This document shows, piece by piece, positions 10,549 through 55,424 of a stretch of DNA of 64,000 bases. Where the stretch lies: positions 10,155-74,154 of the forward strand of contig CAZPQJ010000001.1 of NCBI GenBank assembly GCA_964588955.1. Reading direction: 5' to 3'. Below the pieces are notes generated by a model. That model was not told the origin of the DNA. It ran no database searches and saw only the letters and a program-made list of their open reading frames with translations. A program made the position numbers and the translations under genes. The stretch comes from an uncultured Gammaproteobacteria bacterium (GTDB lineage Bacteria; Patescibacteriota; Patescibacteriia; UBA9934; CAMTUG01). The first letter of the stretch is position 1. The number at the start of each line of letters is the position of its first letter.

Positions 10549-10559
10549 AGGCGGACAGA

Positions 10560-11561: not shown

Positions 11562-11615
11562 AAAAAGATCGGAGCAGATGAAACCATCTGCTCCGCCATT
11601 TTACACTATTTATCC

Positions 11616-13454
11616 TTAAGTTGTCTGCTCGTGATAGTTGGGGTGGCTGGTGAAGAGGGCTTCGAACTCGTCTTTCTCCAGGGTTTCTTTAACCAGCAGT
11701 TCTTTGACAATGGCGTCCAAACGATCGCGTTTTTCGGTGATGATCTTTTTGGCCGTAGCCATGGCGTTGTTGATCATCCCCATGATTTCCTCATCAATCG
11801 CCTCAGCCCACTTTTCCGAGTAATCGCGGTTCTCGTGAATCTCACGACCCAAGAAGACCATCTCATCTGTTTTGCCAAAGGTGCGTGGCCCAAGTTTTTC
11901 ACTCATGCCGTATTTGGTGATGAGCTCTTTAGCCGTTTGGGTGGCACGGCGCAAGTCGTCGGACGCGCCGGTAGTCATGTCGCCAAAGACTAACTTCTCT
12001 GAAGTATAGCCCCCCAAAAGCACGGCCATCTCATCGATGAACTCGGCACGCATGTGCATCTTCTTGTCTTCAATTGGCAACTTCATGGTGTAGCCGGCGG
12101 CGCGACCTCGGCTAATGATGGAGATTTTGTGCACGGGATCGGCGTGAGGGAGTTCATGCGCCACTAAGGCGTGACCGGCTTCGTGATAGGCCGTGACTTC
12201 GCGTTCTTTTTTGGAGAGAATGTGGCTCTTGCGTTCGGGACCCAAAATAACTTTGTCTACCGACTCCAGCACTTCATTGAGTCCGATCGTTTTTTTGTTG
12301 CGGCGGGCGGCTAAGATGGCTGCTTCGTTCAACAAGTTGCCGAGGTCGGCACCAGAGAATCCAATGGTGCGTTCAGCAAGTTTTTTCAAATCAACGTCTT
12401 TGTCCATGGGTTTGTTGGCGGCGTGGATTTCCAAAATAGCCTGGCGATCTTTGAGATCTGGCAAGTCAATCATCACCCGGCGATCAAAACGTCCCGGACG
12501 CAACAAGGCGGGGTCCAGCACGTCGGGGCGGTTGGTGGCGGCAATGACGATGACGCCGAGGTTTGGATCAAAGCCGTCCATCTCCACCAAAATTTGGTTG
12601 AGGGTTTGTTCGCGCTCATCGTGTCCACCGCCTAAGCCCGCGCCACGTTGACGTCCAACGGCATCAATTTCGTCAATAAAGATAATACACGGAGCGGTTT
12701 TTTTGGCTTTGGCAAACAAATCACGCACCCGGCTGGCACCAACGCCTACAAACATCTCTACAAATTCCGATCCGGAAATATGATAGAACGGCACGTCGGC
12801 CTCGCCGGCCACTGCGCGTGTGAGCAATGTTTTGCCTGTTCCTGGAGAACCCATCAATAAGACTCCTTTTGGAATTTTCGCCCCTAATTCGGTGAACTTT
12901 TTTGGGTCACGTAAAAATTCAACGATCTCGGAGAGTTCTTCCTTGGCTTCTTTTACTCCGGCGACGTCTTTAAAGGTTACTTTGTTTTTTGTTTGATCAA
13001 CCTCGCGTGCTCCGGATTGTCCAAAGCTCATCGCCTTTTGATTGGAGCCTTGCAACTGACGCACCATAAACCAAAAGACCACAATCAGAACGAGAAGTGG
13101 CAAAAGAGAAGGGAGGATTGATTTCAAAAAATATTGCTTGCCGCTTAAATCTTTGACGTTGATAGCCACCTTGGAGAGTTCTTCGGGGGTGACTCCGTAG
13201 CTTGTAAGCAGCTCTGGGAGTGATTGCCCCGCTTCTTTTTTGGTGGTTTGTGTCGTGCCATCTGTAAGACTAGTTGTAATCGTGTCTTGCTCGACATCGA
13301 TGTGATCAACGGTGCCGGCATGGATTTCTTCCACCACCACGTTTATCGCCACTTCCGCCGGTTTAGGCGCGGACAAGTTTACCGTGGAAAAAATGGCACC
13401 AATGGCGATAATGGCAATCAGGAAAAGAATGATATTTTTGGATAGTGGTTTCAT
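11616..13454 (-). CDS. ftsH: ATP-dependent zinc metalloprotease FtsH
   Basis: 612 aa; AAA Walker A GSPGTGKT, second region of homology, HEAGHA zinc-binding motif. Confidence 0.95.
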
Positions 13455-13532
13455 AGCCGGAGAAGATTAGGTTGGACTTTAGTATAACACAGGCGGGGTT
13501 CTGCCCCGCCTGTGTCTTCTACCCGCGTATCC

Positions 13533-14672
13533 TTATTCGGTAACTTCTGCCTTTTTTTCGCTTTCTTCCTTTTCGGCGGCTTTTGTTTCCTCAGGTTTTT
13601 CTTTCAAAGCTTTGAGGGAGAGGCCCAAGCGGTGTTCGTTGGGTTCAATGGAGACAATGCGGAATTTGACGGTCTCGCCAATGGTGGCGAACTTGTTTGG
13701 ATCCTCGACGGGGCTGTCGGAGAGCTCGCTGACGTGCGCCAAACCGTGGATTTCGGCATCCAGCTCTACAAACAGGCCGAACGGGTTAATCTTCAAGACC
13801 TTTCCTTCCACCAGATCTCCAACTTTATAGCGGGCGGCTACATCTTTCCATGGATCGGCAATTAGTTTCTTCATCGACAAGAAGATTTTTGATCCTTCAA
13901 TGCCGATGATTTCTGCTTTTACCGTTTGACCAACTTTGACCACGTCTTTGGGGTGATCAATGCGCTGCCAAGCGAGTTCAGAAATGTGTACCAAGCCTTC
14001 GAGTGAGCCGAATTTCACAAAGGCGCCGAAGTCGGCCACGGCCGTGACTTCACCTTCAATCACATCGCCAACTTTGTGTTGAGCAATCACGTGGCGCTGG
14101 CGATCTTCCCACAATGCTTTTTCGGAAACGATTAATTTCTGATCATTTTCGTTAGCGTCGATTAAGCGCACTTCCATGGAAGAGCCAACGTAGGATTTCA
14201 ACTTCTCCAAAATCTTGCCTTTGTCGCCGCCGGTAACGCGCGGGTAGTGCTCCGGAGCCAACTGCGAGACAGGCAAGAAGCCGGTCACGTTTTCCAAGCG
14301 CACAATAAGTCCGCCTTTGTTGGCGTCCAGGATTTTGACACTGACCGCGTCGCCGGTGGCGAACATGCGGCGCAATTCTTCCCAGGCTTTCTTTTGACCC
14401 GCAAAGCGGAAGGAGAGTTCCATCTCGCCGTTCTCGTTTTCCAGTTCAACCACGGTCGCTTCCACGTCGTCACCTGGCTTCAAGGAGCTGTATTCCTTGC
14501 TCTCGGCGTACAGTTCACGCCCGCGGATGACGCCGGTTTTGACGCCGTTAATATCGATACGCACTTCGCGGCGGCTGGAAGAAATAATCGGACCCTTAAC
14601 AACGTCTCCTACTTTAGGAAACACCAGGTAGGACCCGTCTTCGAGCAACTCGGACAACGTTTTGTCGGCCAT
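13533..14672 (-). CDS. rpsA: 30S ribosomal protein S1 (four S1 domains)
   Basis: 379 aa with repeated S1 RNA-binding domain pattern (GxV.G.V..i..fGaFV..g...GLvHiSel). Confidence 0.8.
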   Translation of the reverse strand: MADKTLSELLEDGSYLVFPKVGDVVKGPIISSSRREVRIDINGVKTGVIRGRELYAESKEYSSLKPGDDVEATVVELENENGEMELSFRFAGQKKAWEELRRMFATGDAVSVKILDANKGGLIVRLENVTGFLPVSQLAPEHYPRVTGGDKGKILEKLKSYVGSSMEVRLIDANENDQKLIVSEKALWEDRQRHVIAQHKVGDVIEGEVTAVADFGAFVKFGSLEGLVHISELAWQRIDHPKDVVKVGQTVKAEIIGIEGSKIFLSMKKLIADPWKDVAARYKVGDLVEGKVLKINPFGLFVELDAEIHGLAHVSELSDSPVEDPNKFATIGETVKFRIVSIEPNEHRLGLSLKALKEKPEETKAAEKEESEKKAEVTE

Positions 14673-27940: not shown

Positions 27941-27953
27941 ATTGTCGTGTATA

Positions 27954-27980
27954 GGCGGGGCTACCACGCCCCGCTTTTTT
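27954..27980. terminator. GC-rich hairpin plus T6 terminator (member of a dispersed hairpin family)
   Basis: GGCGGGGC-TACCAC-GCCCCGC followed by TTTTTT, 14 nt after the proS stop. Confidence 0.7.
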
Positions 27981-27988
27981 GTATTAGG

Positions 27989-29170
27989 ATGGACCCGCTC
28001 TCTATCGATCGCCCAAGCCCGCCGCCGCCATGTTGGCCTACGCGGATCACCTTGATCGTGCCAGAGCTGGAACCCACCATGCCCCGTCCTGAAAACACCC
28101 GTGATGCCCTGGTTGCCCTTCACCAGATCGGCGACGACGTTCTGGCCCGCGAGCTGCCGACCCGCTCCGACCAGCTCCGGCGCTTCCAGTCCAACCCCGA
28201 CGCCTGTCTGAGTGATCTGTGTCGCGGGGTTGAGTGGATCAACGGCTCCATCCAGGATCTTATGGTCACTCCCGACGGCAGGCCGGCCTGGATCGGAAAG
28301 CACCACGACCTCCTGGTTCTGATGGTCGACGGCAAGCCGTGGCCGCTCAGCTTCGATACCGGCGTAAGTCCCACGAGTAGGACTGATGCCGGTATCGTCT
28401 CAGCTGAACTGTTCGGCTTCACCAGCGTTGCTCCTGTTGGTGAACCGATTGTCCTTCTGCGTCACGAAAGTCGTGGCGCTGTGATCTACATTGGCAACAT
28501 GCCGGTGTGGGATGGAAATCTTCACAATGTCGGTGTTCGGATTCTTCCGCACACCCCCGCTCCGACGCTTGTCATTTGGGGGTTGAAGGACGCTGAAGGT
28601 GGGATTGCTGCCCATGCCGAGGCTTTTCTCTGGAAGCCTGTCGCACTCGGTCAACTCGGCTCCTGGTCGAGCGAGATCCTTTCCTGCTTCGGCCTGAGCG
28701 CGGATGAACTGTTCGTCAAGTTCGAACGCCACCAAGGCCTCGGACCGAAGAACGCGAGCAAGCCCCGCGGCCTCCACTCCCTGCGTTTCGGTCGCGAAGT
28801 ACCCATCGATGCAGACGTCCTCGACATCGTGACGGCGAGGGACGGGAGTATGCGTATTCTTGCGCAGAGCCGTGAGTGTGTTCTGGGGATGTACAATTTC
28901 TTTGTGAGTGATGATGGACCCCAAGTGCGGTTCATTGACGATGTTCGGATCCCCGCGCCGTATCGTGGCGGCTACAAGCATATCGATCGATACCCGGCCT
29001 ACAAAGTCGATCTGCGCCATCAGCAGGTAGCCTGGGTCGTCGGACGCAACGTCGTCCAGCCGGCCATGAACCAGGTGACGGATCTGTTCGAACATCCCAT
29101 GCATGGCTGGTGCTACTGGGGGTCGGTTCGACAGCAACTCTTCCTCATGAAAGTCGACTTCGACGAATAA
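27989..29170 (+). CDS. hypothetical protein, high-GC orphan
   Basis: About 393 aa with GC-rich third positions; start uncertain (27989 or 28079); no recognisable motif. Confidence 0.45.
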   Translation: MDPLSIDRPSPPPPCWPTRITLIVPELEPTMPRPENTRDALVALHQIGDDVLARELPTRSDQLRRFQSNPDACLSDLCRGVEWINGSIQDLMVTPDGRPAWIGKHHDLLVLMVDGKPWPLSFDTGVSPTSRTDAGIVSAELFGFTSVAPVGEPIVLLRHESRGAVIYIGNMPVWDGNLHNVGVRILPHTPAPTLVIWGLKDAEGGIAAHAEAFLWKPVALGQLGSWSSEILSCFGLSADELFVKFERHQGLGPKNASKPRGLHSLRFGREVPIDADVLDIVTARDGSMRILAQSRECVLGMYNFFVSDDGPQVRFIDDVRIPAPYRGGYKHIDRYPAYKVDLRHQQVAWVVGRNVVQPAMNQVTDLFEHPMHGWCYWGSVRQQLFLMKVDFDE

Positions 29171-45577: not shown

Positions 45578-46036
45578 ATGGCTCAGACACAGCGCACCCT
45601 CATTTTAATCAAGCCAGACGCGCTCCAGCGCGATTTGGTCGGCGAGATCGTTCACCGTTTTGAGCGTAAAGGGCTCAAAATTGTTGCCATGAAAATGATT
45701 CAGCTTGGCGACGCGGTTTTGGACGTCCACTACGCTCATTTGGCCGATAAACCGTTCTTCCCAGGCTTGAAGGACTTCATGATGTCTTCACCAGTCATTG
45801 CTATGGTGCTGGAAGGTGTGGAGGCCGTTGGAGCTGTGCGCTTGATTTTGGGTCCCACCAAAGCCTACGAAGCCGATGCCGGATCGATTCGCGGCGACTT
45901 GGCCATTGCCGTGGCTTCCAACCTGGTGCACGCTTCCGATTCTGCGGAGTCGGCGGTAGCAGAAATTGATCGATTCTTCGCGCCAAACGAGCTGTTTGCC
46001 TACGAGAAAATCACCGACAAGTTGTTCAACGACTAA
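45578..46036 (+). CDS. ndk: nucleoside diphosphate kinase
   Basis: Start refined to MAQTQRTLILIKPDA; NDK active-site His region (VHASDS). Confidence 0.9.
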   Translation: MAQTQRTLILIKPDALQRDLVGEIVHRFERKGLKIVAMKMIQLGDAVLDVHYAHLADKPFFPGLKDFMMSSPVIAMVLEGVEAVGAVRLILGPTKAYEADAGSIRGDLAIAVASNLVHASDSAESAVAEIDRFFAPNELFAYEKITDKLFND

Positions 46037-46057
46037 TCGACATATCCACACGTCGAT

Positions 46058-46262
46058 TTGACGGTAAAATAGCGCGACCGTATCATAGACTCCGTTATGA
46101 AATCACAAGCCTGGCACACCTTTACGCTTACGACCCGCGCAATTGATTGCGTCGATTTTGCGCTTCCGTATGCGTTAGCGATGGCCAGGATGGGACACTA
46201 AGGTTTCTTAGATCAATTCCAACCGACCATCGCTCGAGAAGAGTGGTGGTCGGTTTCGTTTC
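46058..46262 (+). promoter_or_regulatory. promoter plus leader L0: TTGACG-17-TATCAT, 34-codon upstream ORF (46097..46201), hairpin plus T-rich tract
   Basis: ATGAAATCA start 10 nt after the -10; peptide MKSQAWHTFTLTTRAIDCVDFALPYALAMARMGH; hairpin CCGACCA...TGGTCGG at 46223..46253 followed by TTTCGTTTCG. Confidence 0.45.
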
Positions 46263-46323
46263 GTGGTCGGATTCTGTGGCGAAGGTTGTTGCCGTAGACT
46301 CCGCCCTCTAAACCCAGGGTGGA

Positions 46324-46530
46324 ATGGAGCTGTCGATGACGAATGGTGATCGCACCGCCCCGACGACGGGCACGAACTCCACTTTCCGCTGCGCCGCCCT
46401 GCGTAGTCTTTCCGATGTGATGTTGGGTGACCCGCCGACCCAGCCGCTGCCGGCGCTTCAGCCGCCGCTCGATCGACACATGGTCGGTGTCTGCTGCACC
46501 CCCAATCCGCCCAACCGGCACCGTCTCTAG
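46324..46530 (+). CDS. small high-GC hypothetical protein (sORF1), Pro-rich C-terminus
   Basis: 68 aa; GC3-rich; GGGTGGA just upstream of ATG; followed by a hairpin (46562..46590) homologous to the one after sORF2. Confidence 0.4.
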   Translation: MELSMTNGDRTAPTTGTNSTFRCAALRSLSDVMLGDPPTQPLPALQPPLDRHMVGVCCTPNPPNRHRL

Positions 46531-46665
46531 TCTCTGTTCTTTCCTTCGTTTTCTTCCCGCGCCGGCTCGTCGAGTTTCTCTCCGAGCCGGCCGACCACAC
46601 CTTTGCGACGTGTAACTGTGGATCGGAATCCTCCGATTCATTGAACCCACCGCAGAGGATTCCCC

Positions 46666-47139
46666 ATGCCGAAGTCTCAGCGCCGATACGACTCTCTCGT
46701 GTTTGTGGACGTCTCGTGGTGCGACCCGGACCGTCGCCGTGGACCGAACCGCCTGACCATTTCCCAGAAGGTCGCGGACGAGCTCGGTTTCAGCGCTGGG
46801 TGTACGGTCGTACTGCGTGTCTACACCAGCATGCCTACGAAGACCACTGTCATCCGTCCGTTCCCCGCCTACGATCTCCTGGGCTCATGCCAGGTTGTGG
46901 TCAAGGAACAGATCGATCGCCCGAGGCTTGCTGGGGAGCTTTTGTCCAAAGCCAAGGAACAGGGTGGTGTCATCGTTTCTGCCGTCAGGGTGCGAGACAA
47001 GGGTCGCATCATCTGCTACAGGCACAACGATCAGAAGTTGACGCGTTCCGGAATCAATTCCGTTTCCGTCAGTCGTGCCAACGCCGCCAACGTCGACGAA
47101 AACACGGACAGCTTCGTCCCCATCCCACAGACCGCCTAG
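46666..47139 (+). CDS. small high-GC hypothetical protein (sORF2), possibly with AbrB/SpoVT-like swapped-hairpin segments
   Basis: 157 aa; GAGGA RBS 8 nt upstream; GC3-rich; NRLTISQKVADELGFSAGCTVVLRV resembles a looped-hinge DNA-binding motif (weak, by eye); terminator hairpin at 47162..47192. Confidence 0.5.
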   Translation: MPKSQRRYDSLVFVDVSWCDPDRRRGPNRLTISQKVADELGFSAGCTVVLRVYTSMPTKTTVIRPFPAYDLLGSCQVVVKEQIDRPRLAGELLSKAKEQGGVIVSAVRVRDKGRIICYRHNDQKLTRSGINSVSVSRANAANVDENTDSFVPIPQTA

Positions 47140-47204
47140 TTCGCTCCTTCTTCTTCCTCGTGACTGGCTCGTGAGTTCTCTCCGAGCCAGTCCAGCCCCT
47201 TTTA

Positions 47205-47436
47205 TTGACAATTATTGACCAGTTTTGTATCCTCAACCCATCGCTATGAAATCAATTGCCTTGTACTTTAGCCTCGGCTTTAGCGGGTTTACTCCCGGGG
47301 CGGTTGATGTTGCATAGAAGCTAGATTCTTTGAACATCAGGCCGCCGCAAGGGCGGTTTTTTGGTTGCTGATTTGATCAAGACTTGTCCGAACAAGTCTT
47401 GCAGAGTCTACAACCTTCCGTGCCTCAGGGGTTCCC
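47205..47436 (+). promoter_or_regulatory. promoter plus leader L1 for ATP-grasp 1
   Basis: TTGACA(47205)-N4-TTGACC, 17-nt spacer, TATCCT(47228); uORF 47246..47317 (MKSIALYFSLGFSGFTPGAVDVA); hairpin CCGCC-GCAAG-GGCGG plus T6 (47343..47362); second perfect 9-bp-stem hairpin 47378..47401. Confidence 0.55.
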
Positions 47437-48711
47437 ATGAACGACGATCGCGACGCTGTCTCCTGTTCCGTCGTAGCTGCCAGCGCGTCGACTGCCACCG
47501 TGCGCAAGCCCGTCTGCTGGGCGCATCTGACCGGCGACGTCTGCGACTTCGACACCGGGCATGGTCCGATTCTCTCCGCCCTCTCGGTGCGAGCCCTCCC
47601 GCTCGCTCGCAAGGGCGACATCGTCATCCTGCCCGCGCCTGGCGAGATTCCGCAAGATCTCGGCTACCACCAGAGCTTCGCTCTCGGTCCTGACCCGTTC
47701 GACGTCCACTGGGCGGATCTCACCGGCCACGAGGAGGGGCGTGTCACCGAAGGTCTTCCGATCACGAAGGGAATGTGCATCGACGTCATGTCGGGCACCT
47801 CCCGCGACGTGCGCAAGATCGCCGAACATTACGGCGCTCGGGTCGTTGCTCCGGATCTCGATGTTTGTCGGAATGCCAATTCCAAGAGTTGGCAGCAGGA
47901 GCTCGTGATCAAGATCGGAGGAGTTCCGATCCCTCTCGGCGGTTCCGTTCTCAACGTTGAGGAGGCACGTCGAGTGGTCGATGAACTGCGCACCGCCGGC
48001 TACCCTGTCGTGCGCTTCAAGCCGAAGAACTCGGCCAGTGGCATCGGACAGGTAGTCATCGGCGGCAACTTCGAAAGCTACGGTGACCTCATGTACCCCG
48101 GCGTCGTGCAGGCGCAGATCAACGTTGTGTCCTGCCACAGCGTGCAATTCTTCGTGAACGCTCGGCACCTCGCCGAGTTGGTGCACGAAGGGCCGAAGGC
48201 TCAGGTCTTTGAGGTCATCGATCAGATTGTCGATGGCAACGGCGGCTACGAAGGCTCGGTCTATCCGTCGATGCTGATCGACGATGAGAAGAATCGTCTG
48301 CAGACCATGGCCTGGCGTATCGTCAGTCGTCTGGCCGTGGAAGGATTCAACGGTTACGGCTCGGTCGACTTCATGCGCGATACGAGCGGCAACTTCTGGT
48401 TCGCCGAGGTCAACGGCAGGAAGACCGCTACCTACTACGCGGCGATGATCTCCCGCCGGATCTTCGGCAAGGTCGTGCCGTTCGTCCTGCGTTCTTTCCG
48501 CTTCCCCAAGCACATGCCCTTCCCGGCCTTCGGGAAGCACATGGGTGCCTGGATGTTGCGCCCGGGATCGAGCGAGGGGTTCTTCCCCTTCGCCTACCTG
48601 CCGCGCTTCGGCTTCAGCTACGGCGTGACTTTCAGCCCTGATGCCGAGAAGGTTCGGCGTCTCGACGCCCAGGTTCGCCTCAATATGGCGCCGCTCACGC
48701 GTAGCGCCTGA
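47437..48711 (+). CDS. ATP-grasp superfamily ligase, paralog 1 (subfamily A)
   Basis: 424 aa; flexible-loop motif FKPKNSASGIGQVV (K-P-x-x-x-S-x-G-x-G) and FWFAEVNGRKTA (E-V-N-x-R); N-terminal pre-ATP-grasp-like region; ANSKSW motif shared with paralog 3; GC about 65%. Confidence 0.7.
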   Translation: MNDDRDAVSCSVVAASASTATVRKPVCWAHLTGDVCDFDTGHGPILSALSVRALPLARKGDIVILPAPGEIPQDLGYHQSFALGPDPFDVHWADLTGHEEGRVTEGLPITKGMCIDVMSGTSRDVRKIAEHYGARVVAPDLDVCRNANSKSWQQELVIKIGGVPIPLGGSVLNVEEARRVVDELRTAGYPVVRFKPKNSASGIGQVVIGGNFESYGDLMYPGVVQAQINVVSCHSVQFFVNARHLAELVHEGPKAQVFEVIDQIVDGNGGYEGSVYPSMLIDDEKNRLQTMAWRIVSRLAVEGFNGYGSVDFMRDTSGNFWFAEVNGRKTATYYAAMISRRIFGKVVPFVLRSFRFPKHMPFPAFGKHMGAWMLRPGSSEGFFPFAYLPRFGFSYGVTFSPDAEKVRRLDAQVRLNMAPLTRSA

Positions 48712-48763
48712 GCGCTACTTCAACCGCCGGCCGGGGTACACCCTCGGCCGGCATCATCTTTAT

Positions 48764-49025
48764 TTGACAACTCTTGATCTACTCTTTACGATAAGGATAA
48801 AGCTATGTCATCAATGAATTTCAGCATCGACGTTTCTGAATCGTTGTCTTCAACGCCAAAGGTTGTTGCCGGTTTGCTTTTGAACCTCGACCTTCTTCCT
48901 TAGGGTCGCCTGGTTCCTTGTTACATCATGGAGTTGGACGACCCGATTGAATGGGTCGTTTTTGTTTGTCTGTGCTGTTGACTAGGGGTCTGAATGATCA
49001 GATCTCTTGAAACAGCGGAGTCAAC
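48764..49025 (+). promoter_or_regulatory. promoter plus leader L2 for ATP-grasp 2
   Basis: TTGACA(48764)-N4-TTGATC, 17-nt spacer, TACGAT(48787); AAGGA RBS then uORF 48805..48903 (MSSMNFSIDVSESLSSTPKVVAGLLLNLDLLP); hairpin ACGACCC-GATTGAAT-GGGTCGT plus T5 (48939..48964); long-range stem GTTGACT...AGTCAAC abutting the start codon. Confidence 0.55.
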
Positions 49026-50357
49026 ATGAACCGTACCTGCCTGCTGCACTGCCTTAGCGAATACGGACACGACGCTCAAGGCAGCGTGACGACCTCGATC
49101 GATGGTGTAGGTCTCTATGCCGGCCGTGGACTGGTTGTTCCTGCGCAGCTCAAGATCGTGCCGGATCACCCGGTCCTTTCTGCCGCTTGCGACTACATGC
49201 GGCGTGTAGGGATCGGTCCCAAGCGTATCGTTCACGTCCCGAGCATGGGATCACTCTACGACGGGGTACGTGCCAGTTCTGAAGCACAGCGGGCGATCGT
49301 CGAGCACGTTGCTCAGGACGGAGACGTCGAGTTCTACATCCCTGGCCCGGCAGCATGGGCACTCTGTCACGAGCTCGGTGTTCCTCAGAGTCGGGTGCGC
49401 AATCAACGGCCGGAGCTCGCGCCCGAGACCGACAAGGTGGGGATGCGGCGTTTGGGCGAGCAGCTCGGTTTGCGTACCTGTTTTCCTTCGCACGCATTCT
49501 CGCGTGGCAAGGAGGAAACGATGCGTGTGGCTCGCACGCTGTTCGCTGAGGGTCATGCACGTATCGTCATCAAGCGGCCGGACTTGGCGAGCGGCGAAGG
49601 GCAGCTGGTGATCGGCTCGATTAACGATCTCTCGCAGCAGGAAGGCGTGGCCTTTCTCCATCGCTATGCCGTGGACGGCGTCGAGTTGGTGGTCGAAGCG
49701 TGGTGGGAAGGGGAGGATTTCTCCGCGGTCTTCGAAGTCGATTTCGACGAAGTTCGGCTCATGCACATGAGCGGCCAGTTCATGCGTTCTGCCGATGGCA
49801 AGACCCACATGGGCAACTTTCTCGGTAATCGGCCGAACCAAGTATTTCCCAGTGTCGGGTCCTGTTCTTGGCATAATCGTATGGAGGTGGCTTGCCGACA
49901 GATGATCAGCGTCTGGCAACAGCGTGGCTATCGCGGCAAGATCGGCTTCGACGGCAAGGTGCGTCCTCATGCGGGAGAGTTCGTTCTGCTCGAAGTCAAC
50001 GCGCGTCCGTCGGCGAGCATCTTCGCCCGCTACGTGCTGGAGCAGGTGCGCCGCAGCGATGATGAAGAGATCGGCGTCTCCATGCTGAGTGTCACGCCGC
50101 CGCGCGCTTTCTCGATTGAAGAGATGGTGGCACTTCTCGGAAGTGACGCCTACAATCCGAGTACTCGCCGCGGAGTGATCATCGGCAACCCTGTTCGGAT
50201 GGGCGACATGCGTCATCCCGAGACGCCGATCCATGTGGTCGCTGACTCCGTTTCTCAGTCGATCGAGACCGCGCTTACCATCAAGCGTCGTGTCGAAGGC
50301 GATCGTTTCGACCCGGTAACGGTCCCTGACTTCACCTCTTGGCAGATGGCCAGCTAG
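49026..50357 (+). CDS. ATP-grasp superfamily ligase, paralog 2 (subfamily B)
   Basis: 443 aa; IKRPDLASGEGQLVIG (K-R-P-x-x-x-S-G-x-G) and FVLLEVNARPSAS (E-V-N-x-R-P); clearly similar along its whole length to paralog 4. Confidence 0.75.
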   Translation: MNRTCLLHCLSEYGHDAQGSVTTSIDGVGLYAGRGLVVPAQLKIVPDHPVLSAACDYMRRVGIGPKRIVHVPSMGSLYDGVRASSEAQRAIVEHVAQDGDVEFYIPGPAAWALCHELGVPQSRVRNQRPELAPETDKVGMRRLGEQLGLRTCFPSHAFSRGKEETMRVARTLFAEGHARIVIKRPDLASGEGQLVIGSINDLSQQEGVAFLHRYAVDGVELVVEAWWEGEDFSAVFEVDFDEVRLMHMSGQFMRSADGKTHMGNFLGNRPNQVFPSVGSCSWHNRMEVACRQMISVWQQRGYRGKIGFDGKVRPHAGEFVLLEVNARPSASIFARYVLEQVRRSDDEEIGVSMLSVTPPRAFSIEEMVALLGSDAYNPSTRRGVIIGNPVRMGDMRHPETPIHVVADSVSQSIETALTIKRRVEGDRFDPVTVPDFTSWQMAS

Positions 50358-50410
50358 TTGTCTGCCTCCATTCTCTTACGAACCAGCCGTCGACACGGCT
50401 GGTTCTTGCG

Positions 50411-50626
50411 TTGACAGAGCGTGTTGATTGTGTTAAGTTTCTCTTGTTATGGAATGTATTGTCGCAAACAGCAACAGCTATTATTACGCTCTCGCCACCA
50501 CGAGGGTGCTGATGCGTTAACACATATTTGTGTCGATGCCGCCGCCCTCGGGCGGTTTTTTGTTGTGTGTTTTATGAAGAACGGAAGCGTTCTGTTCTTC
50601 TCAAACCCACAACGTTCGAGGTCAAC
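50411..50626 (+). promoter_or_regulatory. promoter plus leader L3 for ATP-grasp 3
   Basis: TTGACA(50411)-N7-TTGATT, 17-nt spacer, TAAGTT(50434); uORF 50449..50520 (MECIVANSNSYYYALATTRVLMR); hairpin CCGCCC-TCG-GGCGG plus T6 (50541..50561); second hairpin GAAGAAC..GTTCTTC (50576..50600). Confidence 0.55.
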
Positions 50627-51775
50627 ATGTCTGCGTTCTTTCACCTTACCGGTAATGACGTCGCTCTTCCGTCGAGCGACTACAAGGTTCTGCGCCACTA
50701 CGCTCTGCGTGCGCTTCTTCCCGCCGGAGCTGACGACACGGTCATTTTGCACGGTCTGCCGTACCCCACCGATCTGCTCCGCCTGTTCAATCGTCTAGAG
50801 ATCGGACCGCACCCTGATCGTGTCTTCACGCACCTGTCGCGAGCGCGTGGGACGACGCTGCAAACCTTCAGTGGTGCCGCGCCGCGGGTGTGGGCCCTTA
50901 GCGATCAATTCGGTTGCCGCCTCGACGCACCCTCGTTCGAGGTCTGCATCACTGCCAATAGCAAGTCCTGGTTCCAGCGTACCTTCGGTGATAACACGTT
51001 GGCTTCGTTGCCTCCGGGGGCCGTCTGTCGTTTCGCCGACGTACCGATGCGTGCTTCCGCTCTCATGCGTGAGCACGGTCGCGCGGTACGTCTCAAGGAT
51101 CCCCACTCCGCGAGCGGCATCAAGCAGATGGTCCTGCCGTTGGGATCAGACGTGTCTGCCCGCCTGCCGCATGGACGAATGGATCAACAGGTCGTCCTCC
51201 AAGTCGAACAGCATCGCGACGCTGACGCCAGTGTGCAAGGTCATGTTACGCGTGACGGGGAAGTCATCGTGGGACAGGTGACGGGTCAGCACATCAGCGG
51301 ACAGGGAAGTCATGGTGGCAACTTCTTTCCTTCTGGTTTGCCGGAATGGGCGGAAGTGGCCATGCGTGACTCCACGCGCGCGGTGGGCGAAGGACTCGTA
51401 CGTCTCGGCTACTTCGGTCCGTACTCGGTTGACTTCGTCATCGACTTTGAAGCTTGCCGCGTCTACGCCGTGGAGTGCAACGCCCGTGTGACCGCCCCGC
51501 AGTATCCAATCCGTGCCTTGCAGACCTGGTACGGAGAAGCCGAGCATAGGCCGTTCGATCTCTTCAGCGTGCGTGTGGCATCGGGTACGAGTGTCGACGC
51601 AGTCGCGAATGCGCTAAATGGCACGCTCTTCTCGCGCGTGCTCGGCATCGGAGTCGTGCCGTTCGTCGTTCTGCCTCAGTTCGGCCTTGTCGTCTGCACT
51701 GTCTTCGCCACGAGCGAAGCGCATCGCGACTACCTTTCGAGCGAAGTCAGACACCTGCTCTTGCCCCTGCGCTAA
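50627..51775 (+). CDS. ATP-grasp superfamily ligase, paralog 3 (subfamily A)
   Basis: Start refined to MSAFFHL (GTCAACATG context identical to paralog 2); RLKDPHSASGIKQMV loop and YAVECNARVTAPQ (E-C-N-x-R); ANSKSW motif shared with paralog 1. Confidence 0.65.
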   Translation: MSAFFHLTGNDVALPSSDYKVLRHYALRALLPAGADDTVILHGLPYPTDLLRLFNRLEIGPHPDRVFTHLSRARGTTLQTFSGAAPRVWALSDQFGCRLDAPSFEVCITANSKSWFQRTFGDNTLASLPPGAVCRFADVPMRASALMREHGRAVRLKDPHSASGIKQMVLPLGSDVSARLPHGRMDQQVVLQVEQHRDADASVQGHVTRDGEVIVGQVTGQHISGQGSHGGNFFPSGLPEWAEVAMRDSTRAVGEGLVRLGYFGPYSVDFVIDFEACRVYAVECNARVTAPQYPIRALQTWYGEAEHRPFDLFSVRVASGTSVDAVANALNGTLFSRVLGIGVVPFVVLPQFGLVVCTVFATSEAHRDYLSSEVRHLLLPLR

Positions 51776-51821
51776 GTTCTTCCATCGCGCCCTCTTCTCA
51801 GGGGGGCGCGATTTATCGTTC

Positions 51822-52035
51822 TTGACCACTTTCCAGTGGTGTGATAGTTTTTTCTTGTTATGCAGATCGCCTCGAACAATGCACGCCGCGCCGCCACGAG
51901 CTATTGCTTCGCTGCGATTATTATTGATCTCGTTATTGCCTAGGGCCGTGTTCTTTTGTTGAAACGACGAAAGAAGACGGCCCTGCGCAAGCGGGGTCAT
52001 TTTTGTTCCTTCACCCTCATGCATAGGGGAATGCC
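51822..52035 (+). promoter_or_regulatory. promoter plus leader L4 for ATP-grasp 4
   Basis: TTGACC(51822), 17-nt spacer, TAGTTT(51845) with the same TTTCTTGTTATG context as L3; uORF 51860..51943 (MQIASNNARRAATSYCFAAIIIDLVIA); 13-bp-stem hairpin 51942..51984 and T5 at 52001. Confidence 0.5.
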
Positions 52036-53382
52036 GTGAATCTGATCCATCTCTTCGACATGCACTGCTACCAAACCGGTGAAGCCTCAGCTGATGGCCG
52101 TCAGACCCTGGCGGGGATCGACGATCGCATCGGCGACTACGCCGCGCGTGCTCTTCTTCTGCCCGGCAAGGCAGCCATTGTGCCCAAAGATGTGCTCATC
52201 GACGCGAGTGTCGCAGACCTCCGCACCTGGGGAATCGGTCCCCAAGAGATCATTCAAGTGCCTGGTGATCGAGGACTGTACAGCGGCGTTCTCGACTGTT
52301 CGCGCACTACGGCGATTCTTCGTCATCACGTCAACCTGGGTGGCAAGATCCAGGTCTTCAATCCCACGGCGAGTTGCTGGTCCTTTTGCGAGCAGTTGGG
52401 GGTCCACCGAGGCGTCCTGCACAACCGTCCGGAAGATCTAACGGCACTGACCGACAAGATCGGCTTCCGTCGTCTGGCTGCGGAGCTTGGCCTGCGCCGA
52501 GCGTTTCCCGAACATCGCTTCGCGACGCAAGCGGAAGAAGTCCGTGCGGCGGCGCGCGAGCTGTTCCTTCTCGGCCATCGACAGGTGTTCATCAAGCGGC
52601 CGGACCTGGCGAGTGGAACGGGGATGATCAAGGTTGGCGCTCGCGGTCTTAACGGTCGCAAGCTGAATACCTTTCTGTCCCGTTACGCTGGAAGCGTGGA
52701 GTTGATCGTCGAAGCGGCCTGGGGACAGGAAGACTATTCGTTTGTCTTCGACGTAAACGAAACGTCGTGGACGCTCGAGTACGTTACCGGCCAGTTCATG
52801 GAAGCCGACCGTAAGACCCATGCCGGCAACTTCCTTGGAGCAACCCCGAAGGACTGTCTGCCTGCTGATTGGAATAAGATCAAGCGAGGGAAGTTCATCT
52901 GCACGGTTCTTGATTTCATGACGCCGATGATCGACCAGTTGCGTAAGCGCGGTTATCGCGGCAAACTCTGCGTAGATGTGCGCGGCAATCATCGTGGCGA
53001 AGCGCGTCTGCTCGAGCTCAATGCTCGCGCTTCCGCGAGCAACTTCCCGCACGCCGTGCTCGAACAGGTCCGCAATCATTATGGTCACAAAGAGCTCGGT
53101 GCTGTGATGCTCAACGTCTGGCTCCCGAACCAGGTAGAGCGCTACGAAGATCTGCGCGCCCTCATCGGTAACGACTTGTTCGATCCGACCACCGGTTTCG
53201 GAATCGTCCCTGGCAACATCTTGTGTGTGCGCCACCAACGCCCCAAGTTCAGCCCGGTAATGGTGCAACCGAGCGTGGCCGGCGCGGTCGCGGCGCTGCT
53301 CGCGTTCAAACAGCGCATCGAACGCCGGCGTCCGGATCTCATCTACCCCGATCACTTAGCGACCGTCATGGTCGCTAAGTAA
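52036..53382 (+). CDS. ATP-grasp superfamily ligase, paralog 4 (subfamily B), GTG start
   Basis: 448 aa; FIKRPDLASGTGMIKVG and ARLLELNARASAS; AGGGGA RBS 8 nt upstream of the GTG; terminator hairpin GTCGAAGC-TTCGTC-GCTTCGAC downstream. Confidence 0.75.
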   Translation: MNLIHLFDMHCYQTGEASADGRQTLAGIDDRIGDYAARALLLPGKAAIVPKDVLIDASVADLRTWGIGPQEIIQVPGDRGLYSGVLDCSRTTAILRHHVNLGGKIQVFNPTASCWSFCEQLGVHRGVLHNRPEDLTALTDKIGFRRLAAELGLRRAFPEHRFATQAEEVRAAARELFLLGHRQVFIKRPDLASGTGMIKVGARGLNGRKLNTFLSRYAGSVELIVEAAWGQEDYSFVFDVNETSWTLEYVTGQFMEADRKTHAGNFLGATPKDCLPADWNKIKRGKFICTVLDFMTPMIDQLRKRGYRGKLCVDVRGNHRGEARLLELNARASASNFPHAVLEQVRNHYGHKELGAVMLNVWLPNQVERYEDLRALIGNDLFDPTTGFGIVPGNILCVRHQRPKFSPVMVQPSVAGAVAALLAFKQRIERRRPDLIYPDHLATVMVAK

Positions 53383-53483
53383 CCCGTTCTCACTTCGCGG
53401 TCGAAGCTTCGTCGCTTCGACCCTCACCTGTCTTCGTAAGTTTCCTTGCGCATGCAGGTGAGAACTCGTATTATTCCTTCACT

Positions 53484-54254
53484 ATGAAAGTACTCCTCTT
53501 ACAGATTCGTCGCGATGTCATGAAAGAGCATGAACGCAAATGTGTTGTAGCTAAGTCCGGCTTGTCGGAACAAGAGATTGTTGCGTTCGACATCTTTGAG
53601 CGGTTGATCACTGCGGACGATTTGAATGGTTACGATGCCTTGGTTGTCGGGGGTAGTGGTGGATACTGCGTTTCTGAACGTGAGATTCCCGCCGAGATCG
53701 ATGCGATGGAGGGGGTTATTCGTGAAGCACGCCAACGCCGCATGCCTGTGCTCGGTATTTGTTTTGGGCATCATTTGATTGCTGAAGCGCTTGGCGGCGA
53801 AGTACGCCAGGATCGCGATCGTCAGGAAGTGGGAACTTTTGAAGTGGCGCAAACTGCGGAAGCAAAAGTTGATCCAATATTTTCGCACCTACCGGCAAGC
53901 TTTTTGGCACAGGAGGGACACAAAGATCATGTCACGAAATTGCCACCAGGTGCGGTGCATCTTCTCTCAACTCCCACCTCGCCGTTGCAAGCCTTCACCT
54001 TTCCCGGCGAGCCTATTTACAGCATGCAGTTGCATCCAGAGTTGTCGAAAGCAGATGTGTTCGAACGCCTCGATTTTTATCGTTCGTTGTATTTGAAATC
54101 GCAAATGGTCGAAGGGACAACAGATGTGGGTGCGGGGAGTACAGAATTTGACACGATTATGAGTGCTACTATGGACACGCCAGAGGCGGAAAAGATTTTG
54201 CATCTATTTTTTGAAGAAGTTGTTGATAACGGAAAACGTTATCCACACGCGTAG
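53484..54254 (+). CDS. class I glutamine amidotransferase-like protein (standalone GATase1)
   Basis: 256 aa; nucleophile elbow GICFGHHL (Cys), His in MQLHPE, overall GATase1 pattern; GC about 50% (host-like). Confidence 0.7.
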   Translation: MKVLLLQIRRDVMKEHERKCVVAKSGLSEQEIVAFDIFERLITADDLNGYDALVVGGSGGYCVSEREIPAEIDAMEGVIREARQRRMPVLGICFGHHLIAEALGGEVRQDRDRQEVGTFEVAQTAEAKVDPIFSHLPASFLAQEGHKDHVTKLPPGAVHLLSTPTSPLQAFTFPGEPIYSMQLHPELSKADVFERLDFYRSLYLKSQMVEGTTDVGAGSTEFDTIMSATMDTPEAEKILHLFFEEVVDNGKRYPHA

Positions 54255-54629
54255 AGGATAACTTGGGTGTAACTTTTTTGACGCACCCATTGACCGTGCT
54301 ACGCTACTAGTGTCTCAGGGTCAATCGGGTTCGGTCTTGGATCAACGGTTCAGCAACACATTCCTTTAACGCCGCGACTGCGGTTACGGCAAAAGGAATC
54401 GGCACGCACTGACCCGCGGAAACGATCACCACGGATGACTTGGGGGACTGCCCCATGAGAAGTCATAAACAAGGCGTCTGCCTTGATCGTCCGCCCGCGC
54501 GGAACAGCGACAGTAGGATCCTTATCGCCAGACCACCCGATTGAACCCTGGGGCGCAAATTTCGCCTTTGTGTTTCGACACGTTTCGTTTTCGACGTTTT
54601 GCGTCGATTTTTTGTTACAATGGGCATAT

Positions 54630-55274
54630 ATGCTTCGCAGCCACTTTACGAGAACGGAATGGCAAATACTACGGCAACTGAATACTCCCAAAAAGATTCA
54701 GGACTTTTTGAATACCCTGCCGCAAAGTTTTAGTAAGCACGGGCAAGAGTGTCGCTCGCCTCGGCGGGTGTTGCGTGAGGGAAGCGCCTATTGTTTGGAA
54801 GGAGCGATGCTTGCCGTCTTGGCTCTGCGTGTTCATGGACATCGACCACTGCTCTTAGATCTCACCTCGCATGATAGTGATGATGATCACGTTGTTGCTT
54901 TGTTCCAACACAACGGTTGCTGGGGGGCGATTTCCAAAACGAATCACGCGGTCTTGCGCTATCGCGAGCCGATCTACCGATCCGTTCGCGAACTTGTGAT
55001 GAGTTACTTTCATGAATACTTTTTGCAGCGCGGTGGCAGAAAAACTTTACGTTCCTACGCCGTTGCGGATGTGTCTAAATTTGATCGTCGAGGATGGATG
55101 ACCGATGAAGAAGATCTGTGGTACATCGCTGAGCACTTGTGTGACATTCCGCACAAGCAAGTTTTAACGCGATCGCAAATCGCCGGTTTGCGTCCAGCCG
55201 ACGCGATTGAAATCCAAGCGGGGGAGTTGCTTGAGTGGCGAAAGGGTCAGGGATCTTTTAAGAAAAGTGTATAG
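54630..55274 (+). CDS. transglutaminase-like / papain-fold cysteine peptidase domain protein (tentative)
   Basis: Candidate catalytic Cys in GSAYCLEGAMLAVLALRVHG, downstream His (DHVVALFQHNGCW) and Asp; start uncertain (TTG at 54483, or ATG at 54630 directly after an extended -10 TGTTACAAT). Confidence 0.4.
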   Translation: MLRSHFTRTEWQILRQLNTPKKIQDFLNTLPQSFSKHGQECRSPRRVLREGSAYCLEGAMLAVLALRVHGHRPLLLDLTSHDSDDDHVVALFQHNGCWGAISKTNHAVLRYREPIYRSVRELVMSYFHEYFLQRGGRKTLRSYAVADVSKFDRRGWMTDEEDLWYIAEHLCDIPHKQVLTRSQIAGLRPADAIEIQAGELLEWRKGQGSFKKSV

Positions 55275-55295
55275 GCGGGGCTACCACGCCCCGCC
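55274..55295. terminator. GC-rich hairpin identical to the one after proS
   Basis: GTGTATAGGCGGGGCTACCACGCCCCGC is shared as a 28-mer between 27947..27974 and 55267..55294. Confidence 0.6.
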
Positions 55296-55424
55296 GCATA
55301 GGTTTGACCCTTTCGATCGGGCGCGAAAAACAACTCGTTTGAACACAATTTGTGTTCATCCCGTGGCTTTTCTAAAAGGTTCCATTCGGCTATACTCATC
55401 TCGATCGTTTTTCCTAAACATCCT

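Follow-up and report, generated by a model that had tools for sequence, protein, structure and literature searches.

The locus described here raises the question of why paralogous ligase genes lying side by side on one strand should each form a transcription unit of their own. It is located in a 64,000-nucleotide stretch of contig CAZPQJ010000001.1 (assembly GCA_964588955.1), hereafter called the window, and comprises four consecutive plus-strand open reading frames (ORFs) that a sequence-only reading of this DNA had taken for ATP-grasp ligases, each with its own promoter, an arrangement which that reading found odd. The four ORFs were present at exactly the coordinates it had given: G1 (47437..48711, 424 amino acids (aa)), G2 (49026..50357, 443 aa), G3 (50627..51775, 382 aa), and G4 (52036..53382, 448 aa, with a GTG start). 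The start of G3 was placed at 50627 because a terminator (50542-50565) sits within a longer, TTG-started ORF. From the sequence of the spacers and their predicted folding, we consider it likely that the genes are preceded by ribosome-mediated attenuators, each of which switches one ligase on when one amino acid becomes scarce. The separate transcription units would thereby be explained, because each gene has its own amino-acid-specific attenuator.

The spacers were 297, 314, 269, and 260 bp long, in agreement with the 260-315 bp reported earlier, and the two elements previously assigned to them, a hairpin 3' of each ligase stop codon and a TTGAC(A/C)-17-TAnnnT promoter, were both found; the claim of one promoter per gene holds at the level of sequence. 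What that description had overlooked was a short leader ORF and a second hairpin pair of the attenuator type. The parts follow one another in a constant order: the hairpin after the upstream stop codon, the promoter, the leader ATG 9-12 nt further on, and, 18-36 nt after the leader stop codon, a GC-rich hairpin with a T-run, from which another 40-80 nt lead to the ligase start codon, itself preceded by a Shine-Dalgarno sequence. A fifth unit of the same design stands upstream of G1 and carries two small ORFs, W68 and W157. The five leader ORFs comprise 23-34 codons without a Shine-Dalgarno sequence, and they appear to be leaderless or nearly so, because they start only 9-12 nt beyond the -10 hexamer. 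Frame-preserving indels and the constant spacing of the ATG suggest that they are translated. Their clustered codons specify Thr in the upstream unit, Phe/Tyr (tentatively) in the G1 unit, Leu in the G2 unit, Tyr in the G3 unit, and Ile in the G4 unit.

A generic promoter scan alone gave 5 sites versus 3.6 +/- 1.9 expected, which is not above chance. When both strands of the whole window were searched for a composite of a promoter, an ATG 6-14 nt downstream, and an ORF of 8-60 codons, 6 sites were retrieved in 64 kb, compared with 0.95 +/- 1.0 in shuffled sequences, and 5 of the 6 lay in these spacers. Four composite sites had a strict terminator within 75 nt, as against none in 40 shuffles. 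Rfam at gathering thresholds recognized three tRNAs only in the whole window, and at E <= 10 it gave no credible T-box, riboswitch, or leader RNA match in 45900-55400.

All parts of the five units lie on the plus strand. The upstream unit begins with a sigma70-like promoter (46058..46086, TTGACG-17-TATCAT), followed 10 nt after the -10 hexamer by the ATG of the leader ORF MKSQAWHTFTLTTRAIDCVDFALPYALAMARMGH (46097..46201), which contains the Thr cluster TFTLTT, and by a terminator hairpin with a TTTCGTTTCG tail (46223..46263), whose 5' arm can alternatively pair with 46177-46186 within the end of the leader ORF. In the G1 unit, the promoter (47205..47233, TTGACA-17-TATCCT) precedes the leader ORF MKSIALYFSLGFSGFTPGAVDVA (47246..47317), with one Tyr and three Phe codons and a tentative assignment to Phe; an antiterminator helix (47299..47346) has the last leader codons as its 5' strand and the 5' arm of the terminator (47340..47364, GGCCGCC-GCAAG-GGCGGTT and a T-run) as its 3' strand. 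The hairpin after the G1 stop codon (48726..48752) is GC-rich with a weak T tail. The G2 unit consists of a promoter (48764..48792, TTGACA-17-TACGAT), the leader ORF MSSMNFSIDVSESLSSTPKVVAGLLLNLDLLP (48805..48903), with 6 Leu in its final 10 codons (LLLNLDLL), an antiterminator helix (48903..48944) beginning at the last base of the leader stop codon, and a terminator (48936..48968, GGACGACCC...GGGTCGTTT and TTGTTTG), and a further hairpin follows the G2 stop codon (50380..50405). In the G3 unit, the promoter (50411..50439, TTGACA-17-TAAGTT) and the leader ORF MECIVANSNSYYYALATTRVLMR (50449..50520), with three Tyr codons in a row, are followed by a terminator (50542..50565, CCGCCC-TC-GGGCGG and TTTTTTG); segments 1 (50488-50494), 2 (50501-50508), and 3 (50543-50550) may form either a 1:2 hairpin or an 8-bp 2:3 antiterminator (50488..50550). 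After the hairpin behind the G3 stop codon (51784..51812), the G4 unit comprises a promoter (51822..51850, TTGACC-17-TAGTTT), the leader ORF MQIASNNARRAATSYCFAAIIIDLVIA (51860..51943), with 4 Ile in its final 8 codons (IIIDLVI), an antiterminator helix of about 18 bp beginning in the leader stop codon (51942..51984), and a terminator (51979..52008, GGCCCTGC-GCAA-GCGGGGTC and ATTTTTG); the hairpin after the G4 stop codon is at 53399-53422. Extra hairpins were also observed between the attenuator terminator and the ligase start at 47380-47403, 48985-49007, and 50571-50600 (for example, CAAGACTTGTCCGAACAAGTCTTG).

In minimum free energy (MFE) folds, a long helix starting at the leader stop codon, or a few bases before it, pairs with the 5' arm of the terminator. 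Partial folding, with RNA extending only to the end of that arm, was carried out for 13 leaders from the window and the related loci L001, L014, L015, and L016; in 12 of them, 6-10 nt of the terminator 5' arm paired with a segment at or overlapping the leader stop codon, and the duplex energies in these leaders were beaten by 0-40 of 500 dinucleotide shuffles. The G3 leader was the exception, with the classical 1:2 / 2:3 / 3:4 layout. Eleven leaders were further subjected to equilibrium folding with a 30-nt ribosome footprint masked out. Nine, including all four ATP-grasp leaders of the window, switched in silico: the terminator was absent when the RNA was free or the ribosome stalled on the first clustered codons, and was complete or near-complete with the footprint on the stop codon. 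In the Ile-type leaders (window, L001, and L014), the antiterminator comprised 14 pairs with 96% of cells paired and 4 compensatory pairs, compared with 0-1 in slid-register controls, and the terminator comprised 8 pairs, 94% paired, with 2 compensatory pairs. On the strand common to both helices, covariation with both pairing partners is seen at columns 67 and 70, and the stop codon's third base (UAA/UAG) is one of these partners. The leaders thus show a clustered-codon ORF, an intrinsic terminator before the gene, and a mutually exclusive antiterminator that, in 9 of the 11, depends in silico on where the ribosome sits.

The enzymes placed behind these leaders fall into two subfamilies, A (G1 and G3; 26% identity, E 6e-25) and B (G2 and G4; 38%, E 4e-85), which match each other weakly by BLAST (E 1e-6). 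The profiles of families A and B aligned in hhalign with a probability of 100% and E 7e-40 over 345 columns, and on this ground all four genes are full-length paralogues within one divergent ligase clade. The K-x-P-x-x-(A)S-G-x-G loop and the E-x-N-x-R motif, previously read as ATP-grasp hallmarks, were found and were invariant inside each subfamily in our alignments (K195, S199-G202, N326, and R328 in family A; K183, S189, G190, G192, E323, N325, and R327 in family B). In an alignment of 72 sequences, K137, D309, and R327 were invariant, and K183, G192, E323, and N325 were kept in at least 90% of sequences. Single-sequence searches matched all four proteins to ATP-grasp enzymes, every match being sub-threshold (Ddl_C, GARS_A, and biotin carboxylases; in addition, G3 matched BesA and G4 matched an ATP-grasp peptide ligase). 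No Pfam or NCBIfam ATP-grasp model scored above its curated cutoff (Dala_Dala_lig_C, 20.2 versus 24; GARS_A, 20.5 versus 27), and G4 gave zero matches to these models; ATP-grasp_3 was detected at E <= 0.01 in 17 of 52 family B members, with a best E of 1.2e-6. A and B are divergent, uncurated ATP-grasp subfamilies. In an exhaustive profile search of 1.84 billion representative proteins, family B had 269 relatives at E <= 1e-3 and 21 at E <= 1e-30.

The ATP-grasp identity was supported by the family B profile, by a structural model of G2, and by the A-B profile alignment. The family B profile (52 sequences) matched PGM1 (3wvq) at E 2e-22, in an alignment spanning profile positions 71-409, and the Streptomyces ATP-grasp peptide ligase 8ynd at E 1.4e-21; PurD, LdmS (7r8p), and BesA came next. 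The AlphaFold2 (AF2) model of G2, built from the 72-sequence alignment, had a predicted local distance difference test score (pLDDT) of 94.5 and a predicted template modeling score (pTM) of 0.93. Foldseek returned 534 matches to this model in the PDB at E <= 0.001, of which the best 50 were all ATP-grasp enzymes; among the matches listed, the nearest solved structures were 8ynd, PGM1, BesA, and LdmS, with template modeling (TM) scores of 0.62-0.73, followed by PurK, PurT, PurD, and biotin carboxylases. For G3, a two-sequence alignment gave an unusable AF2 model (pLDDT 47), and the homology of family A rests on hhalign. In profile and fold, over the full length including the N-terminal domain, the closest relatives were ligases of the PGM1/BesA/LdmS type. 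The matches to PGM1, 8ynd, BesA, and LdmS support the earlier preference for an L-amino-acid or peptide ligase over an enzyme of primary metabolism, and G1-G4 are predicted from sequence and model to be ATP-grasp carboxylate-amine ligases of this kind.

The codon-cluster signal was strong for G2 (Leu), G4 (Ile), and G3 (YYY), and weak for G1. Residue-specific P values, calculated post hoc, were 0.001-0.02 for the window leaders and reached down to 2e-5 in relatives (FFFGGFPFF, LLGLLSLLDL); a generic any-residue enrichment test, which is too blunt, was passed by the Leu-rich and Phe-rich leaders only. The L001 orthologue of the G2 leader is MNCLTHHSTSLSLNLLLT (SLSLNLLLT), with 18 aa versus 32 aa in the window, and the orthologues of the G4 leader end in ...TIINLTIA (L001) and ...TIIILDLVLA (L014), the three lengths being 27, 17, and 18 aa. 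In L016, FFFGGFPFF precedes the A gene and IISNVILFVILI the B gene; in L019, FIFPLFTFGF precedes the A gene, and DMIVIMLVIL and LLGLLSLLDL the two B genes. The leaders of L024 and L028 contain LFVFVLFLVL and FVCIIVGLLG, respectively, and that of the GCS2 ligase in L015 contains FTFTYFFGFW. Leaders rich in Phe or Tyr stood before subfamily A genes (G1, G3, L016_396, and L019_399) and leaders rich in Leu, Ile, or Val before subfamily B genes (G2, G4, L001 c442 and d436, L014, L016_450, both of L019, L015, L024, and L028), so that subfamily A goes with aromatic and subfamily B with branched-chain residues. For leader tails such as GAVDVA, GAVGIA, and GGFVMGQG, each ending at the stop codon, the best explanation lies in the RNA, since GGCGG serves as the antiterminator's 5' strand.

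With these elements, the attenuators would work as follows. When the sensed amino acid is plentiful, the ribosome would reach the leader stop codon and cover the 5' strand of the antiterminator; the terminator would then form, and transcription would end without reaching the ligase gene. A shortage of the cognate charged tRNA would stall the ribosome upstream on the clustered codons, the antiterminator would form, and the ligase gene would be transcribed. Each ligase would accordingly be induced by a shortage of one particular hydrophobic amino acid. Less certainly, each enzyme would ligate the sensed amino acid, or a close analogue, to an acidic partner such as Asp or Glu, perhaps yielding a pool of protected or trapped dipeptides for later release by a hydrolase. 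This more speculative part has a precedent in the Staphylococcus aureus enzyme LdmS, which makes Asp-Met and is likewise induced by Met limitation.

A candidate for the hydrolase is a class I glutamine amidotransferase / peptidase C26-like gene (GATase; 53484..54254, plus strand), recognized by profile matches. It is similar to subunit A of archaeal GMP synthase and equally to the gamma-glutamyl peptidase of plants, and a ligase/hydrolase trapping cycle is conceivable because of this double resemblance. BesA and GCS2-type enzymes make gamma-glutamyl amides. Genome contigs scanned with an alignment of the GATase yielded no match. The GATase is the conserved 3' neighbor of a subfamily B gene in every array-carrying lineage examined; its functional link to the ligases is unproven, because it also occurs in a locus without A and B genes (L008). 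Bacteria of the candidate phyla radiation (CPR) are generally unable to make amino acids and are thought to rely on outside sources. In its full form, the proposal would describe a CPR starvation response in which an attenuator for each amino acid (Phe, Tyr, Leu, Ile, and possibly Thr/Val) is coupled to a ligase that traps that amino acid as an Asp- or gamma-Glu-dipeptide, with release by a C26-type hydrolase, possibly the GATase; in this form, we regard it as possible, though doubtful. If trapping does take place, it would represent ATP-driven hoarding of scavenged, membrane-permeant amino acids, in which the leader labels the substrate of an orphan enzyme, and a previously unknown starvation response; in one related locus, the ligase concerned would be of the GCS2 type.

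Several observations weigh against the attenuator proposal or its extension to function. The regulation rests wholly on sequence and folding, and the covariation is supported by three distinct sequences only. The 2:3 antiterminator of G3 is short, was found by eye, is missing from the MFE fold, and has a duplex energy not above shuffles (70 of 500). The upstream (Thr) leader and L016c folded the terminator in every masked state; because its terminator forms in every state of equilibrium folding, the upstream leader is the weakest attenuator case. L001_T3 was too short to discriminate in the footprint test. The residue-specific P values are post hoc, and the G1 leader, with three spaced Phe and one Tyr, has a bias that is not significant without a preset residue class. 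The two subfamily A genes of L001 are without a leader ORF, and the scan used detected no leader in L021-L023. Finally, to induce an enzyme that consumes the scarce amino acid is a paradox, although the substrates could be analogues or precursors.

The history of the locus was examined in related contigs from other samples; groundwater samples with such contigs include SRR16481186/7, Hainich H41, and JGI 3300000571. In L001 (JGI 3300000571), the gene order is ugd-comEC-MBL-ndk-(410, 392, 442, and 436 aa)-GATase-murA; the housekeeping proteins are 70-82% identical to those of the window (MBL 53%), versus 31-45% for the ligases, and the ligases are ordered A-A'-B-B', as against A-B-A'-B' in the window. 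The same slot holds a 374-aa protein, one A, and one B gene in L016/L020 (a Patescibacteria metagenome-assembled genome), one A and two B genes before GATase in L019 (Candidatus Uhrbacteria), and one A and one B gene with six intervening genes in L028. A single B gene occurs in L015, together with prephenate dehydratase, prephenate dehydrogenase, and a GCS2 ligase, and in each of L021-L023 (Uhrbacteria), together with a member of the 374-aa family and a gene of the Asp/Glu-racemase family; and L024 (Magasanikbacteria) has two B genes flanking GATase. The number of ligase copies in relatives thus ranges from one to four, and L008 (Hainich groundwater) retains the flanks with other genes in the slot, the A and B genes being absent. 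The attenuator layout recurs in at least six related loci with different sequences and the same geometry. The Ndk of the window is 61-64% and its Ugd 46% identical to the proteins of Uhrbacteria loci. By these identities and the shared synteny, the host, an uncultured groundwater organism, is a CPR (Patescibacteria) bacterium related to Uhrbacteria. L021 (CAYOCD010000001.1) is labeled uncultured Gammaproteobacteria; it is syntenic with two Candidatus Uhrbacteria contigs (L022 and L023), and its B-family protein shows 40.2% identity to L16_450, the same as the L022/L023 proteins. The Gammaproteobacteria label of L021 is probably wrong. In L001, the called ATG of a 452-aa gene lies in the attenuator terminator loop (L001:9673-9721); the gene really begins at 9721, giving 436 aa, and this start is the one annotated in other samples (P0009).

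The sequence-only reading had placed the genes in a high-GC island. The contrast with the neighbors (46-55%) is real, but the coding GC was 59.3-62.2%, with 68-79% at third codon positions (GC3), rather than 63-65%. A recent foreign island was rejected: the same ndk...GATase slot is occupied in relatives, the ligases are deeply diverged, and raised GC3 is common to the orthologues, those of L001 also exceeding their neighbors in GC3. Because it is syntenic in relatives, the array is not a recent import; it has long resided in a variable slot downstream of ndk, where it evolves fast and is rearranged. Codon use in the ligase genes favors TTC (85%), TAC (80%), and ATC (87%), as opposed to TTT (67%) and ATT (52%) in neighboring genes, and the leader ORFs use mostly U-ending codons. 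The preference for C-ending codons could fit genes expressed during starvation and offers an unproven alternative to horizontal transfer for the high GC. Two more GC peaks (60-62%) were seen in the window, at 3064-3939 (a 291-aa ORF) and at 27947-29170 (a 407-aa ORF after a prolyl-tRNA-synthetase-like gene); no leader of the attenuator type was found at either.

Other explanations of the small ORFs and hairpins were considered. The small ORFs may encode ribosomal substrate peptides, in the manner of PGM1 or of peptides made by the ribosome and then post-translationally modified (RiPPs), that each ligase acylates or extends, with the hairpin after the peptide acting as a leaky terminator to fix how much precursor is made relative to enzyme. 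We judge this improbable. PGM1, among the closest solved relatives, does join an amino-acid-like acid to ribosomally made peptides, and orthologous loci agree in the C-terminal parts of their small ORFs (LNL-LL; II(N/D)L(T/V)IA); the conserved stretches, however, repeat one hydrophobic residue, the ORFs differ in length and at the N-terminus (32 versus 18 aa; 27, 17, and 18 aa), several small ORFs have no Ser/Thr, Asp/Glu, or Lys cores, and the L001 subfamily A genes have no small ORF at all. Leaders of the same kind also precede unrelated genes (the GCS2 ligase, a HAD hydrolase with a 422-aa protein, and the 374-aa family). A leaky terminator, moreover, needs no helix from the stop codon that sequesters its arm, yet such a helix exists here, shows covariation, and takes in the stop codon's third base. 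The related idea of a graspetide-like RiPP pathway, raised in the sequence-only reading, found no support: TIGR04187 reached 12 bits against a cutoff of 350 (E 0.088), in G1 only. Graspetide (microviridin-type) maturases share the ATP-grasp fold and a nearby small ORF, but sequence membership and a suitable core peptide were lacking here, the small ORFs being hydrophobic runs without Ser/Thr plus Asp/Glu/Lys cores and absent before the L001 A genes, and no graspetide ligase was among the 50 Foldseek matches listed for G2. Modification or tagging of the two upstream small proteins, another earlier suggestion, found no support either, W68 and W157 being absent from every related locus. It is extremely unlikely that the short ORFs and extra hairpins are chance features of long spacers with nothing else in them than a terminator and a promoter; taken alone, generic scans for promoters and terminators did not exceed shuffles, but the composite pattern is enriched in and confined to these spacers, and it recurs in at least six related loci with other sequences, the same geometry, and covariation.

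The enzymes might also be embedded in a different physiology. L-Amino-acid ligases build peptide antibiotics elsewhere (bacilysin, rhizocticin), and GC and GC3 do exceed those of the flanking genes, as would suit a horizontally acquired secondary-metabolite island whose four ligases act serially on a small non-ribosomal peptide and whose promoters are incidental. This is quite improbable given that the same ndk...GATase slot is found, deeply diverged (31-45% versus 70-82% for neighbors), in several Patescibacteria and that the orthologues share the raised GC3; the immediate neighbors examined include no tailoring, export, or immunity genes, and each gene answers a different amino-acid signal. 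Order and copy number vary (window versus L001; one to four ligases in relatives), which does not suit a fixed pathway and argues against the stepwise assembly line that had been suggested earlier. Equally improbable, in our estimate, are cell-envelope ligases attaching amino acids to peptidoglycan or some other precursor of the wall, after the model of the D-aspartate ligase and aspartate racemase pair in enterococci. In three Uhrbacteria-type loci, the B gene directly follows an Asp/Glu-racemase-family gene, and murA lies 2 kb downstream in the window; the adjacency of murA, however, is ordinary synteny, which L001 retains with no functional link, the slot contains neither Mur nor Fem partners, and there is no obvious reason why a shortage of Leu, Ile, Tyr, or Phe should induce a wall enzyme. 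We therefore retain amino-acid-specific attenuation of individual ligases as the preferred explanation.

Among the neighboring genes, W68 (46324..46530, plus strand, 68 aa, GC3 0.78) lies downstream of the first leader and W157 (46666..47139, plus strand, 157 aa, GC3 0.74) follows it in the same reading frame, and each is succeeded by a near-identical hairpin (46560-46593 and 47162-47192). Neither had a Pfam match or a counterpart in any related locus. The possibility that they are remnants of a fifth ligase was rejected, as tblastn of all ligases against 46037-47436 found nothing. Between GATase and murA (54483-55274) lies an ORF of 214-263 aa with a Cys...His...Asp pattern, which has no Pfam match and is absent from L001, where murA directly follows GATase.

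Further genes accompany the array in the related loci. The slot of L008 (L008:4079-7205) holds genes for 302-aa and 254-aa proteins, a HAD hydrolase, a 422-aa protein, and a serine hydrolase, with at least three leaders built to the same plan, among them MKHPNNSFTFSFFFTRLKAGAVGIA and MTSRHNLLSIVVIIRLMGGAIDVA, and because these genes carry such leaders, the attenuator regulon would extend past the ATP-grasp genes. In L015 (L015:4854-7274), the prephenate dehydratase and dehydrogenase genes are followed by the GCS2 carboxylate-amine ligase with its Phe-rich leader MTHRQFTFTYFFGFWLRNAV, and then by the subfamily B ligase and GATase. A family of about 374-403 aa co-occurs with B ligases (L016:5058-6182, L021:5313-6470, L022:4581-5792, and L023:5261-6448) and had neither a Pfam match nor a PDB sequence match; its L016 member has a leader of its own, MSCVCVQPTVKMYVRFLWKQGGFTMDA. 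In the Uhrbacteria loci, the gene of this family is followed by a small ORF, the Asp/Glu-racemase-family gene, and the B ligase, after which L022, and probably L023, carries genes for a TrpR-like repressor and a GNAT protein. In L028, the A and B ligases are separated by six genes of about 260-300 aa (L028:2971-7672), and four more come after GATase (10556-14327); BLAST similarity was seen among the downstream four only, and the spacers are short and alike, starting with CAAAACCGGTGTTTTT....

The predicted attenuation recurs in Uhrbacteria, in Magasanikbacteria, and in loci of other Patescibacteria. A regulon in which the charging of individual tRNAs is sensed and ATP-dependent ligases are made in response would be an unrecognized way to cope with amino-acid scarcity, and it echoes the unexplained LdmS paradox in Staphylococcus. 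The leaders predict a cognate amino acid for each enzyme (Leu for G2, Ile for G4, Tyr for G3, and Phe for G1) and thereby provide an experimental handle on two uncurated, very rare ATP-grasp subfamilies. In the literature that we searched, ribosome-mediated attenuation was not described in CPR bacteria or before ATP-grasp ligases, and no paper combined these.

Compared with characterized enzymes, PGM1 (the pheganomycin peptide ligase, 3wvq/3wvr) and 8ynd gave the best profile matches, with TM scores of about 0.7 and a shared architecture of three domains including the N-terminal one; they differ in being actinomycete secondary-metabolism enzymes that act on ribosomal peptides, with 16-18% identity, and no biosynthetic cluster surrounds the genes described here. 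BesA (L-propargylglycine-L-glutamate ligase, 8yi6), which forms a gamma-glutamyl dipeptide, was the best single-sequence match of G3 (E 1.9e-7) and a fold match of G2, although the match to G3 was partial, at 34 bits where NCBIfam sets the cutoff at 750. LdmS (SAOUHSC_02373), the L-aspartate-L-methionine ligase of S. aureus, makes L-Asp-L-Met (PDB 7r8p/7r8q), is encoded in an operon with the dipeptidase/hydrolase gene hmrA, and is under S-box / CymR / CodY control, so that it is induced when Met is limiting, which its authors call a paradox (PMC9486568). G2 shares with LdmS the ATP-grasp amino-acid-ligase fold (Foldseek E 7e-16, TM 0.62-0.70), and LdmS resembles the proposed system in being induced by a shortage of its own amine substrate, Met, and in being paired with a hydrolase gene. 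It differs in its identity of about 13%, in its control by riboswitch or repressor rather than by a leader peptide, in being a single gene, and in its restriction to Firmicutes.

Leader-peptide attenuators of amino-acid operons (trpL, leuL, pheL, ilvL/ivbL, thrL, hisL, and pheM of pheST) are familiar from Proteobacteria and some other phyla, and E. coli leuL (GLLLLNA) and pheL are similar to LLLNLDLL and FFFGGFPFF, respectively. Like them, the elements described here have a short ORF with clustered codons for the sensed residue, a terminator before the gene, and an antiterminator predicted to depend on the position of the ribosome. Unlike them, they occur in a CPR host, their leaders start 9-12 nt past the -10 hexamer without a Shine-Dalgarno sequence, most are two-state, with an antiterminator from the stop codon and without a 1:2 helix, each would govern one orphan ATP-grasp ligase gene instead of a biosynthetic operon, and five differently tuned copies stand side by side. 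Leader-peptide attenuation and ATP-grasp amino-acid ligases are thus known kinds; new are the pairing of attenuator with ligase, its occurrence in a CPR bacterium, a two-state design that is nearly leaderless, differently tuned copies placed next to one another, and the two ligase subfamilies, both of them uncurated.

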